Sequence record: SRR31156797_2820
Strand: one strand, 5' to 3'
Length of the DNA: 64,000 bases
Shown here: positions 16,822 to 24,687 of the stretch, piece after piece
How the letters are laid out: every line of letters starts with the position of its first letter
Position numbering within the stretch: position 1 is the first letter of the stretch
Translations under genes and position numbers: made by a program
The notes under the pieces: generated by a model
What the model was told of the DNA's origin: nothing
What the model saw: only the letters and a program-made list of their open reading frames with translations
Databases searched by the model: none

Positions 16822-18658
16822 TTACTGAAAATCACTTTCAATTTTATGTTTTAATTCTTCTAAGCAAATTGAAATTTTGGGATACAATTTCTTATTTATA
16901 TCACCTCTCTCCTTATCGAACAACCAGGCATTAATTAAATCAAGTGTTGATTTTCCATTGTAATTCAACATCCTAAAATTAAGTCGACTGCTGTCTGATG
17001 TTAATATCTTTATACAATTATATGCGTCTTCTTTTGAGCGTGAACTTAGATATCTAAAATTTTGTATCATCTTCATTAATGGGGTATTGCCAGCCGAATT
17101 CTGACTGTTTATATTGGTGTTCGAATTACTTAGCAATGTTTTTACCAATACTGTTGCATAATCGTCAACCGCATAATGTAAGGCGGTTTCTCCAATATAG
17201 TCCTTTTGGTTTAGGTCCAAATCGACTTGTTGCATCAATTGCTTGGTTAATTCTGCTTTTAATAACAAATTCGATTGAATTTCTTCATCAGAATAGCCAT
17301 ATGGTCTACCCGTTGCATGACATAGCCAGCCCAGAGGCGATCTTGCCACTTGACCTTCGATAACATTAGGATCCGCATCATAATCGAAACAGAGTTTGAT
17401 ATTCTCTTTGTAAAAATCAAGGTCTTTTATAGTAGCATTAAAATCGATCCTGCAAATAAATTTCGATAACTCCTGAGAAGCTCCGTAATTGTACACTTCA
17501 GCGGATTTTAACTTGTTAATAATCGCTGTATTCTCGTTCTCTAACCAGTTTATTTTACTTGCATAATCAAAGGCAGTAAAATTTACATTATAAGCTATTC
17601 AATTGCAGATCGTCTCGTGTTAAAAACAATCTAATTAGTTCCATACCTCTCGCATTTATACTATTTACGCCAATATTTCCACTTATTAAATACTGCTGCA
17701 ATGGGTTATTGTTATAATAATAGTTTCGGATGTTTACATCGCACTTCCTATTGGTCAACAAGGTTTTTATCAATTCAATCGGATGCTCTACATATCTTTT
17801 ATTCTTTCCCATATAATGCATGTCTAACGCATAATGCAAGGCAGTATTTCCCTTGGCATCCTGAATATTAGGATTTGTACTATCCAACGAAAGAGCTTCT
17901 TGTAAAAGTGTTAACGTTTGTTTGTTGCTGATATCCTGCCACTGTTTACCTAAAAACAACCTATGCAAAGGAGTTTGACCCAATGTATCCTGACTATTCC
18001 AATAAGGAACAGTCCATCCATTATAGTTCTCTTTAACGCGAATAGTAAGTCGTTTATACTCTCCCTCGTCTACAATTCTATTGTTATTTCTATCGGAAAA
18101 TAGTAGTAAATAGAATTCGCCTACTTGTATTTCGGACATGGCAGTAAAATGCCCCATAAAGTTCAATGAATCAATTTCGAATTCCAACTTATGCAAATCA
18201 CCTGATAAAGCGATTGAATTTACCCTTTTGCTATCCTCATTTTGATAGTACAGATAGTGATGAGCATTAGAATTAAAGTGTAAAGATTCGTAGCCTCCAT
18301 TTTTCGTTGCGGCCAATCCTGTACCCGGTTTAAAAAAATCTAGTGAGTCGATTGTCATAACAGTTTTCATTTCAGGAATGTTAGATGTATCATAAAAAGC
18401 TGCAATGCGAGTAGCGTAAAATAGTTTGTTTTCAGAATCATAGCGTTTATTGTAAAAACGAAGAGTAAATTTACTTTTAGTTATTTGTATGGTGTCGCTA
18501 TTGGAATGTATTGGCACTTCAATACCGTTCTGAAAAACATATACTGTACTGCAATTATCGGAGTACTTACTCTCTGATATTTTTAATGTAGAACATGATT
18601 GCAGTTCGAATGCAATGAGAGCAAATGCAAATAATTGTAATGAGTATTTTATTTTCAT
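16822..18658 (-). pseudogene. Ankyrin-repeat lipoprotein split by a 1-nt frameshift (ORFs 17588..18700 and 16822..17496 are one gene)
   Basis: Both parts carry ankyrin motifs (GQTPLH, GNTALHYA, GETALHYAV, GNTPLM); the 91-nt gap is open in the downstream frame and reads NVNFTAFDYASKINWLENENTAIINKLKSAE, completing the repeat begun by LQLNSL; lipobox LQSC. Confidence 0.8.
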
Positions 18659-18718
18659 TCTTGAATTCTTCATTTTTAGTATACTTAAATTATTCGGCAA
18701 TCTTTATCTGCAATAGGA

Positions 18719-18776: not shown

Positions 18777-19577
18777 TTATGCTATTTTCTTCTTCAAATT
18801 GGTTATAACAAAATAAGCTCCCATCAATACAAACGGAATACTTAGCCATTGTCCCATATTTAAAGACATACCTTCTTCGAAAGCTTCCTGGTTTTCTTTG
18901 ATGAACTCGATAAAGAAACGAGCAGTGAAAATCAATACCAAAAAGGCACCGAAAATCATACCTGAACGTTGCTTCGCATCGGTTTTCCAATACATGAACA
19001 TCAATACACCAAAAGAAAATAAGTAGCAAATTGCTTCGTACAATTGTGCTGGATGACGTGGTGCATTCGGCTCAAAAATCGAAGCCCTTACGAATTGAAA
19101 TCCCCATGAAACATCCGTTCTAATACCTACGATCTCTGAATTCATTAAATTACCCAAGCGAATAAAACATCCTGCTAAAGCAACCGGAATTACAACGTAA
19201 TCTAGAATCCACAAGATTGATTTCTTGCTTACTTTTTTAGAATAGAACCACAAAGCTGCAATTATACCAATTGCCGCACCATGGGATGCCAATCCTCCGC
19301 GCCAAACTTTAATAATTTCGGCTGGATGCTGAGAATAGAATTCCCAACCATAAAAGAATACATGTCCTAAACGAGCACCAACAACTGTTGCAATCATAGT
19401 GTACAGGAACAATTTGTCAAGCCATTCCAACTTAATGCCATCTTTCTTGAACATCTTTTCTACAATGTAGTAGCCCAACAAAAAGCCAAGGGCGAAAAGC
19501 AATCCGTACCAACGGACAGAGAAAGAACCAATTGTAAAAATTTCAGGTTTTACATCCCAAAGGATTGATAGTAACAT
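18777..19577 (-). CDS. lgt: Prolipoprotein diacylglyceryl transferase
   Basis: VRWYGLLFA, VGARLGHVFFY, WRGGLASHG, IRLGNLMNSEIVG, RHPAQLYEA. Confidence 0.96.
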   Translation of the reverse strand: MLLSILWDVKPEIFTIGSFSVRWYGLLFALGFLLGYYIVEKMFKKDGIKLEWLDKLFLYTMIATVVGARLGHVFFYGWEFYSQHPAEIIKVWRGGLASHGAAIGIIAALWFYSKKVSKKSILWILDYVVIPVALAGCFIRLGNLMNSEIVGIRTDVSWGFQFVRASIFEPNAPRHPAQLYEAICYLFSFGVLMFMYWKTDAKQRSGMIFGAFLVLIFTARFFIEFIKENQEAFEEGMSLNMGQWLSIPFVLMGAYFVITNLKKKIA

Positions 19578-19613
19578 ATCTGTTATTTTTAAAGTTCGGT
19601 GAGTTAAAACTAA

Positions 19614-19644
19614 ATGGATTGCCCCGATTATCGGAACAATCCAT
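19614..19644 (-). other. Stem-loop between secA and lgt
   Basis: atggattg-cc-ccga-tta-tcgg-aa-caatccat. Confidence 0.5.
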
Positions 19645-19677
19645 GTGAAAATAATATTAATATTTTAAATAAGGAAA

Positions 19678-22600
19678 TTAAGCCGGAACACCTTTACCGT
19701 GACACTGCTTAAACTTCTTACCGCTTCCGCAAGGACAAGGCTCGTTACGTCCCACTTTCTGAACATTACGAACTGGTTCCGCTTTTTTAGGAGCTTCTTT
19801 TCTTCCGTCGGAACCTAACTCTTCCTTAGAAGTTTTTAAGTTACTCATATCACGCTTGCGTTCTTCTGCCTGACGAACTTCTTCAGGATCCTGCAATGGA
19901 ATATGACCTTTCATTAAGCTGGCAACCACTTTCTTGTTCACATCTTCAACCATTACTTTAAATAGGTTGAACGACTCAAACTTATAAATCAAAAGTGGAT
20001 CCTTTTGCTCGTATGACGCATTCTGAACCGATTGCTTCAGATCATCCATTTCACGCAAGTGCTCTTTCCACGAATCATCAATAGTAGCTAAAATAGAAAC
20101 CTTCTCGAAAGATCTCATTACATCTTCAGCTTCTGTTTCGTAAGCTTTCTTTAGATGAGTAACTACATTAAACATTTTAGAACCATCGGTAAATGGAACC
20201 ACAATGTTCTCATACATTTCCGCTTTCGATTCGTAAACATTCTTGATCACCGGATATGCTTGCTTGGCAATAGCTTCTGTTTTTCTAATATATGAATCAC
20301 GTACAACTTCATTGATCTTCTCAGCAATTACCTCAGGAGTTTCTTTTAAGAATTCCTCTTCAGTAACTGGAGATTCAATAGAAAAGGTACGAATCAAATC
20401 CATTTTGAACTCTTCAAAATCACCACCATGATTTTCATTGGCAATTACTTCAGAAACATCGTACATCATATTGGCAATATCAACCTGAATACGCTCTCCG
20501 AATAAGGCATGACGACGACGCTTGTAAATTACCTCACGCTGTGAGTTCATTACATCATCGTACTCCAATAAACGCTTACGAATACCAAAGTTATTCTCTT
20601 CCACTTTCTTCTGAGCACGCTCGATAGATTTGGTAATCATGCTATGCTGAATTACCTCACCTTCCTGAAGACCCATACGGTCCATTAACTTCACAATACG
20701 ATCGGAGCTAAACAGACGCATCAAATCATCTTCAAGAGATACAAAGAACTGAGAAGAACCTACATCTCCCTGACGACCTGCACGACCACGTAACTGACGG
20801 TCGACACGACGAGAATCGTGACGTTCCGTACCAATAATTGCCAAACCACCTGCTGCTTTCACTTCATCAGATAATTTAATATCGGTACCACGACCAGCCA
20901 TATTGGTTGCAATGGTTACGGTTCCTGCCTGACCTGCTTCAGCTACAATATCAGCCTCACGCTGGTGCAATTTCGCATTCAGTACGTTGTGTTTAATTCC
21001 GCGAATCTTAAGCATTCTACCTAACAATTCTGAAATCTCAACCGAAGTTGTACCTACCAATACCGGACGACCAGCATTAACCAGATCAACAATCTCATCG
21101 ATAACCGCAGCATATTTCTCACGCTTGGTTTTGTACACCAAATCATCACGGTCATCACGAGCGATAGGACGGTTGGTTGGAATTACAACCACCTCTAATT
21201 TATAAATATCCCACAATTCACCAGCTTCGGTTTCCGCAGTACCGGTCATACCCGAAAGCTTACTATACATTCTAAAGTAGTTCTGCAAAGTAATGGTAGC
21301 GAATGTTTGAGTCGCAGCCTCAATCTTCACACTCTCCTTAGCTTCAATTGCCTGGTGTAAACCGTCAGAATAACGACGACCTTCCATAATACGACCTGTC
21401 TGCTCGTCAACAATCTTCACCTTACCATCCATCAACACATACTCTACATCTTTCTCGAATAAGGTATATGCTTTCAACAGCTGATTTACCGTATGTACAC
21501 GTTCTGTTTTAACAGAATAAGACTGAATCATCTCATCCTTTTTTCTCAATTTTTCTTCATCAGGAAGATCAGACTTTTCAATATCATTAATTTCAGTTCC
21601 AATATCCGGCAATACAAAGAATCCTGTATCATCAGTATCAGCACTTAACAAATCAATACCTTTATCTGTTAATTCAATTGAGTTTTGTTTCTCATCAATC
21701 ACAAAAAACAGCTCATCAGTAATAATGTGCATGTTTTTGTTGTTCTCCTGCATGTAGAAGTTCTCAGTCTTTAATAAGGTAGCCTTATTCCCCTGCTCAC
21801 TTAAATACTTAATTAAAGGTTTCATTTTTGGTAAACCTTTAAAAGTTCTTAGCAATAGCTTCGCTCCTTCTTCGTGCTCCTTCTTATCTTCGCTATTCAA
21901 TAAACGTTTTGCATCGGTAAAAATTTTCATTACCAAATCGTTCTGAGCTTTCACGATTTTCTGAATCTGAGGCTTTAAAGAATCAAACTGCTGATCATCT
22001 CCTCTTGGAATAGGACCTGAAATAATCAAAGGTGTACGAGCATCATCAACCAATACAGAGTCAACCTCGTCGACAATTGAATAGTTGTGACGACGCTGAA
22101 CCAAATCCTTAGGATTGGTAGCCATATTATCACGCAAGTAGTCGAAACCAAATTCGTTATTGGTACCAAAAGTAATATCCGAAGCATAAGCTTTTCTACG
22201 CTCATCTGAATTTGGAGAGTGCTTATCGATACAGTCCACAGATAAACCGTGGAATTGATACAATGGTCCCATCCATTCCGAGTCACGCTTAGCCAGGTAA
22301 TCATTCACAGTTACTACGTGAACACCACGTCCGGTTAATGCATTTAGGAATACAGGTAAGGTTGCCACTAAGGTTTTACCCTCACCCGTTGCCATCTCGG
22401 CAATTTTACCCTGATGAAGAACAGTACCACCAATCAACTGTACATCATAGTGAATCATGTTCCAGGTCACTTCTGTACCACCAGCAGTCCATGAATTGAA
22501 GAACACAGCTTTATCGCCATCAATTTGCACATTGTCGAAATGTGGAGCCAAATCGCGGTCGAATTGAGTTGCTGTCACTTCAATTTCTTCATTCTCGGTT

Positions 22601-22971
22601 AATCTTCGGGCAGTATCTTTAACAACAGCAAAAGCAGTAGGAAGAATCTCTTCCAAAACCTCTTCTATTTTCCCATCAATCTGCTCTTCTATCTTATCGA
22701 TTTTATCGTAAGTTTCTTCTTTCTCGTTTACAGTAAGACCACCATTCTCGATCTTATCTTTTAAAGCAGTTACCTGATCAGCTTCAGCCTGCACATAATC
22801 TTTAATGCGCTGCTTTAACTTCTCAGATTCCTCACGAATACCATCGTGACTCAATTGCTTCACTCTGTCGTATTCTGCGGTAATTTTCCCCAAATAAGGA
22901 GACAACTCTTTTAAGTCTCTGTCTGATTTGTTCCCAAACAGTTTGCCTAATGTTTTATTTATAAAACTCAT
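19678..22971 (-). CDS. secA: Preprotein translocase ATPase SecA
   Basis: [66 protein letters not shown] tail [19 protein letters not shown]. Confidence 0.99.
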
Positions 22972-23074
22972 CTTGATGTATTGATTTCAATATGTAAATG
23001 CACCCAAAAGCATTGAGATGCAAGGTATTTGTACGTTAACTAATAAAATTGCCCGAATTTGGGCTTTTGAAATG

Positions 23075-23467
23075 TTAGCAAAGAATGCCGGGAGCACGAA
23101 TATGAGTATCGCCCTCAGGTATTTGATTGTAGTAAACTTCGGAATAAGCACTCACTCCTCTATACTCTTCAGGTAAAGGATGATTGAGCAAGAATTTCTT
23201 TTGATTTAAGGCAGGGATTTTAGGTAAATTATCCAGAACTGATAGTTCTTCGGTATTCGAAAAACATGTTCCGGCAATTTGCTCCTGCTCCACTTGCACC
23301 AATATTGGTGAAGAAAAAGATTCATCGAAGTCCTGAATATGATTTGCATACCATTCTGCAAACAGTTGCTGATCCACTGCAAACTCCTGACCATTGGCGG
23401 TAGGCACAGCGGCTGCACAACCTGTGAGCACACAAAAAACTACTATGAGGTATCTATTCATATCCAT
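23075..23467 (-). CDS. Exported uORF upstream of secA; putative SecM-like translation arrest (secretion monitor) peptide
   Basis: N-terminal signal peptide MDMNRYLIVVFCVLTGCAAAVPTANG; C-terminus ...EGDTHIRAPGILC*; co-oriented 103 nt upstream of secA. Confidence 0.72.
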   Translation of the reverse strand: MDMNRYLIVVFCVLTGCAAAVPTANGQEFAVDQQLFAEWYANHIQDFDESFSSPILVQVEQEQIAGTCFSNTEELSVLDNLPKIPALNQKKFLLNHPLPEEYRGVSAYSEVYYNQIPEGDTHIRAPGILC

Positions 23468-23473
23468 CGACAC

Positions 23474-23481
23474 CAAAAGTA
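23474..23481 (-). promoter_or_regulatory. Sigma-A -7 element for the uORF-secA transcript
   Basis: TACTTTTG on the minus strand 6 nt upstream of the ATG at 23467; overlaps the TTG start chosen by the ORF track. Confidence 0.65.
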
Positions 23482-23544: not shown

Positions 23545-24054
23545 TTAATATAACTTGTTCTGACCATTTCGATCAAACTCTTCTTGCCCTATAATCTGTC
23601 CATTAATACTGGTTGTATCCCAATCCTGAACAATTTTCCAAGTTCCAGATATCTTCTTAAGAACAATATGAAATTGCCCATAATGAATGGAAGTTTCATT
23701 TTTTGAAGTGGTTGAAATTCTATAAAAGCCCACTTCATATGATGTATCCGCATTGGTATGTCTGCTTTCAAACCAAAAATCGAGCTTTACCTTCGCAGAC
23801 TTCTCTCTTAGCATTTGAAATCTTTCAATGTTCTTCGCTTTGAATAAATTTTGAGTATCAATTCCATTGGGAGTTACACGTAAGCTTTCATCTGCATAAA
23901 TTGCATTTAAAGACTTCGCATCAATGGTTTCAAATGCAGCTTTGAATTCATGCCACACTTTATGGTCGATTTCCGTTTGTATACTTTCCATATTGGTTTG
24001 AGCTGATATGATCACAGAGGAAAGCATGAATAATACAATGGCAATAATTCTCAT
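23545..24054 (-). CDS. Exported NTF2-like (DUF4440/SnoaL-like) protein
   Basis: Signal peptide; SYEVGFYRI, YGQFHIVLKKISGTWKIVQDWD NTF2-fold ending. Confidence 0.75.
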   Translation of the reverse strand: MRIIAIVLFMLSSVIISAQTNMESIQTEIDHKVWHEFKAAFETIDAKSLNAIYADESLRVTPNGIDTQNLFKAKNIERFQMLREKSAKVKLDFWFESRHTNADTSYEVGFYRISTTSKNETSIHYGQFHIVLKKISGTWKIVQDWDTTSINGQIIGQEEFDRNGQNKLY

Positions 24055-24186: not shown

Positions 24187-24687
24187 TTATTCTGAGGTAC
24201 TTCTGGAACGCATAGCATTATCCATGATATACATTCCTTCTCCCTTGGCATCGAACATCTTCAATTGGTCTAATAGCTCACTAACTGTCGCTTCTTCTTC
24301 CACCTGTTCGGTAACAAACCAATTCAGGAATATCTTAGTTGCATGATCTTTTTCTGCATTCGCAATATCAACACATTCATTAATTAGCTCTGTTACTTTT
24401 AATTCATGCTTGTAGGTTTCTTCAAAAACATCTACAACACCTTTCCAGTCATGTGGGACCGATGGAATTTGTTCCAGAAGCACTCTTCCACCTCTTTCAT
24501 TCACGTAATTTAGCATTCTCATAGCATGACCAGCCTCCTCTTGTCCTTGAATCTGCATCCAATGAGCAAAGCCAGGATATCCTAAATCAGTAAGATAATT
24601 CGACATGGATAAATACAGATATGCAGACCAAAATTCCATATTAATTTGCTTATTTAACACCTTTTCAACCTTCTTCTTGATGATCAT
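24187..24687 (-). CDS. ftnA: Non-heme ferritin (paralogue 2)
   Basis: LNKQINMEFWSAYLYLSM, QGQEEAGHA, HELKVT, FLNWFVTEQVEEE ferroxidase motifs. Confidence 0.93.
   Translation of the reverse strand: MIIKKKVEKVLNKQINMEFWSAYLYLSMSNYLTDLGYPGFAHWMQIQGQEEAGHAMRMLNYVNERGGRVLLEQIPSVPHDWKGVVDVFEETYKHELKVTELINECVDIANAEKDHATKIFLNWFVTEQVEEEATVSELLDQLKMFDAKGEGMYIMDNAMRSRSTSE

Follow-up and report, generated by a model that had tools for sequence, protein, structure and literature searches.

A conserved upstream ORF of the secA-lgt operon in Marinifilum as a probable RAPx arrest-peptide leader

The window analyzed here, a 64,000-nucleotide stretch of DNA from sequence record SRR31156797_2820, derives from a marine Bacteroidota, Marinifilum, and carries a short upstream open reading frame (uORF) directly before secA. 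This uORF is a genuine, conserved gene and, judged from the comparisons described below, probably a functional arrest-peptide leader. We consider it likely to be the leader of a Marinifilaceae uORF-secA-lgt operon encoding a secretion-monitoring arrest peptide of the RAPP-like type (RAPx, ApcA/RQH-type), since an export signal, a neutral spacer, an invariant R-A-P, a short tail of fixed length and a downstream sec gene together make up the anatomy of the Sec-monitoring arrest-peptide class. The system is real and not new in kind, the class having been reported for this order in 2024; the window uORF is a new or an already catalogued member of that published kind.

Anatomy and conservation of the leader ORF

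The following features, all on the reverse strand of the window, were used throughout.

23474..23481 (-): Bacteroidota-type -7 box TACTTTTG, 6 nt before the uORF ATG (near-leaderless start)
23075..23467 (-): leader uORF of secA, 130 codons; ATG at 23467, stop at 23077-23075
23417..23467 (-): export signal, residues 1-17; MDMNR n-region, YLIVVFCV h-region and L-T-G-C lipobox (codons 14-17 = 23417-23428)
23087..23101 (-): presumed arrest motif I123-R124-A125-P126-G127; RAPG = 23098-23087, Pro126 codon = 23092-23090
23051..23064 (-): hairpin 1, GCCC-AAAUUC-GGGC, starting 11 nt after the uORF stop
22999..23022 (-): hairpin 2, UGCAUCUCAA-UGCUU-UUGGGUGCA, 9 bp, 3' end 27 nt before the secA AUG
22981..22988 (-): A-rich block GAAATCAA, conserved in the secA leader, 13-20 nt before the AUG
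19678..22971 (-): secA, 1097 aa; gap of 103 nt from the uORF stop
18777..19577 (-): lgt (prolipoprotein diacylglyceryl transferase), 100 nt after secA; Pfam LGT, 4.2e-73

The ORF, its RAPG, the TACTTTTG box, the two hairpins, the 103-nt gap and the downstream lgt had been named in a preliminary description of this DNA, and each was confirmed in place. The ORF list extends the uORF frame to a TTG at 23476, inside the promoter box. The encoded protein reads MDMNRYLIVVFCVLTGCAAAVP...GDTHIRAPGILC and ends in ...HIRAPGILC (in longer form, ...EGDTHIRAPGILC*). Its export signal was identified by inspection (MDMNR, a hydrophobic core of 9-10 residues, L-T-G-C), using a lipobox consensus taken from a published abstract. 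From Cys17 to Pro126 the spacer measures 109 residues, which falls in the long range given for Sec monitors in the text of a published survey (PMC10987492). No Pfam or NCBIfam model matched the protein. AlphaFold2, run on the uORF alignment, returned a pLDDT of 57 and a pTM of 0.20, with the signal helix (residues 3-19 modelled as helix), one further helix and nothing else.

A word-indexed protein search yielded 33 proteins at E <= 0.01 among 34 candidates, the window's own protein being one of the 33. Named homologues came from Marinifilum, Labilibaculum and Ancylomarina, and the source records call them 'hypothetical protein'. In the alignment of the window ORF with its 32 homologues, R124, A125 and P126 were identical in 33/33, and the next residue was G in 18 sequences, V in 13 and A in two. 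Hardly any variation was seen in residues 1-22. The mature-region stretches FAEWYADH and NLPKFP were kept within the family, which could point to a role for the exported product itself. When 1.84 billion representatives were searched with a profile, 12 proteins were obtained at E <= 0.001, 10 of them new; nine of these ten remote representatives end in IRAP plus one of V, G, D, S and Q, the tenth in IRGPS, and the lipobox cysteine was retained in nine of the ten. The named members of their clusters are Ancylomarina or 'Marinifilaceae bacterium'.

The profile was also run against an even sample of 401 genomes from the order to which a Marinifilum genome belongs. Four credible matches were obtained (Marinifilum itself, G360, G256 and G136), together with nine further weak ones at E 0.0012-0.047. 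The uORFs of the three remote genomes are 105-111 aa long, start with M(K/E)xNRY[LI]I..LYVMAGC, end in KIRAPE... and lie directly upstream of secA. One of the three is a 'Marinifilaceae bacterium' according to NCBI, which places Marinifilum in Marinilabiliales; GTDB, we assume, places Marinifilaceae in the order Bacteroidales.

Across 25 diverse uORF sequences, only N4, Y6, R124 and P126 were invariant, with M3, L7, I8, V13, G16, C17, P22, I123 and A125 conserved at >=90%. The motif always stood 2-5 residues before the stop, and a lipobox-compatible xx[GA]C was present in 24 of the 25. Selection on the different parts of the protein was compared by pairwise Nei-Gojobori counts over 19 uORF sequences, resulting in the following pN/pS values.

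Residues 1-22: 0.04
Residues 23-60: 0.29
Residues 61-90: 0.40
Residues 91-119: 0.77
Residues 120-126: 0.23
Residues 127-130: 0.87

The export signal and lipobox are thus very strongly constrained, and the spacer (91-119) and post-motif tail evolve almost neutrally. Many synonymous changes were found in the N-terminal codons at the DNA level, so the constraint there acts on the peptide. The pattern that the preliminary description had predicted for such an alignment, a conserved signal peptide and a conserved C-terminal R-A-P-x around a divergent middle, was borne out. Conservation, synteny, region-specific selection and the fold of the uORF-secA gap are together more than chance.

Operon context, transcription and structure of the gap

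In species genomes, the uORF was followed by secA in 19/19 Marinifilum and Labilibaculum loci, with a gap of 101-134 nt; one of these loci belongs to an uncultured Marinifilum and matches the window at 98% identity. Including the three remote members, the uORF was never found away from secA in the 22 loci examined. Downstream, lgt followed secA in all 17 Marinifilum/Labilibaculum loci that reached far enough (two were too short) and in 3/3 remote members, hence in 20/20 uORF-bearing loci with enough sequence, versus 3/28 loci with >900 nt downstream in an even sample of the order. In a FastTree phylogeny built on SecA residues 1-370, the genomes with the uORF all fell in one clade. Inside that clade one genome (G019) has secA-lgt and lacks the uORF, from which it follows that the leader is dispensable. 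A third secA-lgt genome (G034) lies elsewhere on the SecA tree and carries an unrelated frame upstream of secA. Because the uORF homologues form one SecA clade and G034 stands apart from it, the linkage of lipobox and lgt counts as at most two independent origins.

The G034 frame (L045, reverse strand, 922-1431) ends in KPVRAGPVVA*, 69 nt before secA, and contains a lipobox-like VLTVSC; it lacks an ATG and has a possible TTG start, and here too lgt comes after secA. The frame is thereby a candidate for another leader, of SecM-like (RAGP) type, in a different lineage of the order. Other genomes of the order showed different arrangements before secA. In 4 of 30 sampled genomes (L041, L043, L051, L062) an enzyme-like ORF of >400 aa has a C-terminus of the form ...APT....LRIR[A/P]P[S/N] plus 10-11 residues, where LRIR[A/P]P[S/N] is probably part of a domain rather than an arrest signal. 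Another 4 of the 30 (L052, L060, L064, L068) have a conserved 73-aa ORF, MYWTLELASKLEDAPWP...FFFHEDEY, with neither a signal peptide nor a RAP motif. Between secA and lgt, a relative sharing 98% identity with the window has ~177 additional nt directly after the secA stop (L013:8293-8469) with several inverted repeats, a stretch absent from the window (at about 19600-19677); the corresponding gaps measure ~270-370 nt instead of ~100 in L002, L005, L007 and L016. The extra stretch looks like a small mobile or repeat element. Around the operon, the window encodes an ankyrin-repeat protein downstream of lgt (17588-18700, reverse strand) and, upstream of the leader, a DUF4440 protein and a ferritin (23545-24054 and 24187-24687, both reverse strand).

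Promoters were judged by the Bacteroidota -7 consensus TAnnTTTG and its distance to the start site. The box TACTTTTG was exact, at the same 6-nt distance to the uORF ATG, in 18/18 loci with upstream sequence. An independent secA promoter in the gap had been suspected earlier; an exact TAnnTTTG occurred there in 1/19 loci and one-mismatch matches were not positionally conserved, which speaks against it. The candidate itself (TACCTTGC at 23027-23020) is not conserved, overlaps the region of the 5' arm of hairpin 2 and was rejected. With the leader's box kept and the gap box not, the conserved transcription route to secA seems to start at the leader's promoter. RNA-library contigs from two studies (X14 record 10, X15 record 11) run from the uORF through the gap into secA; a contig is no proof of a single transcript, and such libraries may contain DNA, so this bridging is weak evidence. 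No RNA-library contig covers 23468-23800 and the contig ends scatter (23336, 23383, 23423, 23447); these ends were dropped as evidence for a transcription start, which contigs cannot show. In Labilibaculum loci (L010-L019), a GC-rich hairpin GCCTCAC...GTGAGGC followed by 7-8 T lies ~40-70 nt upstream of the uORF ATG, and this strong terminator-like element just before the leader promoter marks the end of the upstream transcription unit.

The gap RNA was more stable than dinucleotide shuffles in 19/19 loci (z -1.5 to -5.0, mean -2.9). A first hairpin starts 7-11 nt after the uORF stop in 16/19 loci, with differing sequences (L002, L008 and L009 have other structures at this position), and a second ends 27-31 nt before the AUG in 17/19, its stem sequences differing between lineages. 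RNAalifold on the MAFFT alignment of the gaps returned 0 pairs because MAFFT misaligned the hairpin arms; per-sequence folds and a covariance-model alignment were therefore used. In the latter, hairpin 2 scored 0.308 for covariation versus 0.209 in shuffles (0/500 as high) and <=0.201 in slid controls, with 68% of cells paired, a proportion held down by Marinifilum rows imperfectly in register. The block GAAATCAA was identical in 16 aligned gap sequences (A2) and is also present in L002.

No Shine-Dalgarno (SD)-like sequence was found in the gap or the secA leader. SecM-type unmasking of the secA start, in which a stalled ribosome opens a stem-loop covering the secA ribosome-binding site, was examined in silico by partition-function folds of the complete leader together with 60 nt of secA in 19 loci, with the stall footprint forced single-stranded. 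The mean predicted unpaired fraction at -18..+12 of the secA AUG was 0.48 for free RNA and 0.48 for RNA stalled at Pro126 (0.49 and 0.47 for control positions); masking by the stall footprint thus changed nothing, and unmasking was rejected. The doubt about an SD-based mechanism raised in the preliminary description is upheld on both counts, the missing SD-like sequence and the unchanged accessibility predicted for the secA start. By ribosome footprint size, as we assume it, hairpin 1 starts 5-12 nt past the expected edge of a stalled ribosome and would therefore not be melted directly. It was also discarded as an attenuator: a terminator scan found no canonical terminator at hairpin 1, and the logic has the wrong sign, since the 5' arm would be covered by a ribosome that has reached the stop rather than by one held in a stall. 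A switch in which the Ala-Pro-Gly codons GCUCCCGG pair with the 3' arm of hairpin 2 and free its 5' arm for the secA leader was likewise abandoned, as other genera lack the complementarity and folding shows no effect.

Base composition of the coding strand sets the end of the leader apart. Between about -160 and +60 relative to the uORF stop (window 23235 to 23015), C outnumbers G in 12-17 of the 19 loci, falling to 5/19 at -60, and G exceeds C on both flanks, in the 5' half of the leader and in secA. The C-rich zone includes the part of the leader with the almost neutrally evolving protein. Such an excess of C over G is a signature typical of Rho entry (rut) sites.

Comparison with published arrest peptides

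Fujiwara et al. (2024, Nat Commun; PMC10987492) screened 30,175 GTDB r202 representative genomes for hypothetical genes of <300 aa upstream of secA, secDF or yidC having a localisation signal and a conserved C-terminal motif. According to the text of that paper, RAPP-like groups are named by order, and uA_RQH_Bacteroidales_1 and _2 are secA uORFs that efficiently stalled ribosomes of B. subtilis and, to a lesser degree, those of E. coli. For a RAPG representative of the order (R102, P104), R102A or P104A abolished the stall in a B. subtilis system, and no toeprint was seen at RAPG with E. coli ribosomes; toeprints of RAPP-like peptides placed the third motif residue in the P site (PMC10987492). 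With RAPP-like/RAPG secA uORFs of this order already in print as stalling B. subtilis ribosomes, the novelty implied by the preliminary description is lost. Its reading of the uORF as a SecM-like monitor is partly supported: the comparative pattern and the SD doubt stand, the internal promoter it named as a caveat is not conserved, and the novelty falls.

The window uORF resembles the uA_RQH_Bacteroidales groups, as described in that text, in being a small hypothetical ORF directly before secA in the same GTDB order, with a signal, a spacer of >30 residues and a RAPP-like C-terminus. In terms of the published screen, it is co-oriented with secA, has 130 aa and no known domain, carries a localisation signal by inspection, has a 109-residue spacer, and ends in a motif of the RAPP-like query list that is conserved among its homologues (RAPG, RAPV or RAPA in 33/33). 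All forms of the family, RAPG, RAPV, RAPA, RAPD, RAPS, RAPQ and RAPE, are on that list (PMC10987492). The tested RAPG representative differs in having its motif at R102/P104, compared with R at 114-126 in the window family and at 99-103 in the short Marinifilaceae form, which has RAPE; with the short-form uORF as query, RAPE forms alone were obtained. As R102 matches no family member found, the tested representative is not the window's protein. From these likenesses, the family very probably appears in the supplementary lists of PMC10987492.

The main text of PMC10987492 makes no mention of a lipobox, lgt linkage, a leaderless start, gap hairpins or Rho dependence, so the conserved lipobox, the uORF-secA-lgt operon, the near-leaderless promoter and the two positioned hairpins go beyond that text. 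Among the literature matches listed, no primary paper joined an arrest peptide or monitoring substrate with a lipobox or lgt, and only a signal-peptide review had both.

With E. coli SecM, the uORF shares a signal peptide, a long spacer, an I-R-A-x-x core within a few codons of the stop and a place before secA in the same operon. It differs in its lipoprotein-type signal and in lacking sequence homology, a Pfam match and the FxxxxWI element of the SecM arrest sequence FxxxxWIxxxxGIRAGP (as given in PMC10987492); nor is there an SD that could be unmasked, and the secA start is predicted to stay unchanged. ApcA of Actinobacteria (RAPG, before yidC; Sakiyama et al. 2021, PMC7897499) shares the R-A-P core followed by a variable non-proline A-site residue. 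In the text of that paper, the A-site residues G, A, D and S, all seen in the window family, support ApcA arrest, and V is among the top eight A-site residues of ApdP; E and Q, present in some family members, are absent from its permissive lists (PMC7897499). Unlike the window uORF, ApcA belongs to another phylum and to a short-spacer group, has an N-terminal TM segment and precedes yidC, and no sequence similarity between the two was found in word-indexed and profile searches. In a 2025 EMBO J paper, RAPG is described as failing to support arrest when put into ApdP or SecM (PMC12992588).

Proposed mechanism and alternative explanations

In the leader of the E. coli tna operon, TnaC stalls beside the leader stop, a long untranslated spacer follows, and the stalled ribosome blocks Rho with no SD needed. 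The C > G zone of the window leader would fit such Rho-block coupling. In contrast to the window uORF, TnaC is without an export signal and responds to tryptophan when translation terminates. That the window leader depends on Rho is pure conjecture by analogy.

For the leader as a secretion monitor, the following course is proposed. Transcription from the TACTTTTG promoter would begin a few nucleotides before or at the ATG. The ribosome would make the lipoprotein-type signal and a ~105-residue unstructured, fast-evolving spacer, and then I-R-A-P. By analogy with published toeprints of the class, elongation would halt once the Pro126 codon has reached the P site, codon 127 then occupying the A site. 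At this point ~90 residues, including the signal, would be outside the tunnel, and engagement by SecA/SecYEG could pull the chain and free the arrest. When export is slow, the ribosome would stay parked 3-6 codons before the stop, leading to more SecA and probably more Lgt by a coupling route that appears not to be the SD unmasking of SecM. Two such routes are possible within the monitor reading, and we hold each of them equally tentatively: coupling through gap structure or RNA protection, involving the two positioned hairpins, and a TnaC-like Rho block that would act at the C-rich stretch made up of the leader's 3' third and the gap. Counted against the monitor reading is that the published stalling tests of the class, in the texts cited above, used B. 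subtilis and E. coli ribosomes. The missing toeprint of the RAPG representative with E. coli ribosomes, the failure of RAPG inside ApdP and SecM, the A-site residues E and Q of some members, the unchanged predicted secA start, the position of hairpin 1 past the ribosome edge, the G019 locus and the conserved mature-region stretches weigh on the same side.

Three other explanations were weighed. The uORF might encode an ordinary small lipoprotein whose IRAP block serves the mature protein, in sorting, partner binding or proteolysis, and which precedes secA by operon history, with no arrest at all. The lipobox kept in 24/25 sequences, the mature-region motifs conserved within Marinifilaceae, the lack of any predicted coupling from stall to secA start and the G019 locus without the gene would all suit such a protein. 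We nevertheless regard it as distinctly unlikely, given that no confident fold was predicted, that the 30 residues before the motif and the tail are almost neutral while R and P never change, that the motif keeps its distance of 2-5 residues from the stop, that the gene was always beside secA in the 22 loci, and that the same motif class before sec genes stalls ribosomes in the tests reported in PMC10987492. The leader may also work mainly by being translated: the uORF would load ribosomes onto a leaderless mRNA and keep Rho or RNases off the long 5' stretch of an essential gene, RAP being a constitutive, export-insensitive pause. A near-leaderless promoter that is conserved beside a second one that is not, and a C > G zone of the type associated with Rho entry, are in keeping with this. 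So is the weakness of RAPG as an arrest core in foreign contexts (PMC12992588). Neither the near-invariant export signal (pN/pS 0.04) nor the choice of a Sec/YidC-monitor motif as pause site is explained in this way, and we judge translation by itself to be a very unlikely function of the leader.

The remaining alternative keeps the arrest peptide and changes what it reports, namely the lipoprotein branch of export (Sec delivery plus Lgt/LspA processing), with secA and lgt tuned jointly. The observations behind the idea of lipoprotein-export monitoring are just two, the conserved lipobox and the lgt linkage (20/20 uORF-bearing loci versus 3/28 in the even order sample); the unrelated VRAGPVVA* frame with VLTVSC in G034, of a different SecA clade, also precedes secA-lgt. 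Set against these, the uORF homologues represent one SecA clade, so that the association counts for at most two events, and G019 has secA-lgt without the uORF. Furthermore, Lgt acts after translocation, and the established force-release models require Sec alone. On balance, sensing of the lipoprotein branch seems unlikely, and a general Sec-monitoring arrest peptide is the reading we prefer. It is also doubtful, if somewhat less so, that a lipoprotein-type arrest peptide on a leaderless mRNA governs secA-lgt, senses prolipoprotein delivery and signals in a manner unlike SecM, MifM or VemP (e.g., by Rho block or hairpins) in a non-SD phylum.

As a discovery the uORF adds little, because class, order and motif are already in print. 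For Bacteroidota it offers a clean natural case of a RAPx arrest-peptide leader with good conservation, and what makes it valuable is the question of how coupling could work independently of SD pairing, together with the lipoprotein/lgt twist. Defined experiments on the coupling can now be built on the promoter and lipobox, both conserved, on where the hairpins lie and on the linkage to lgt.
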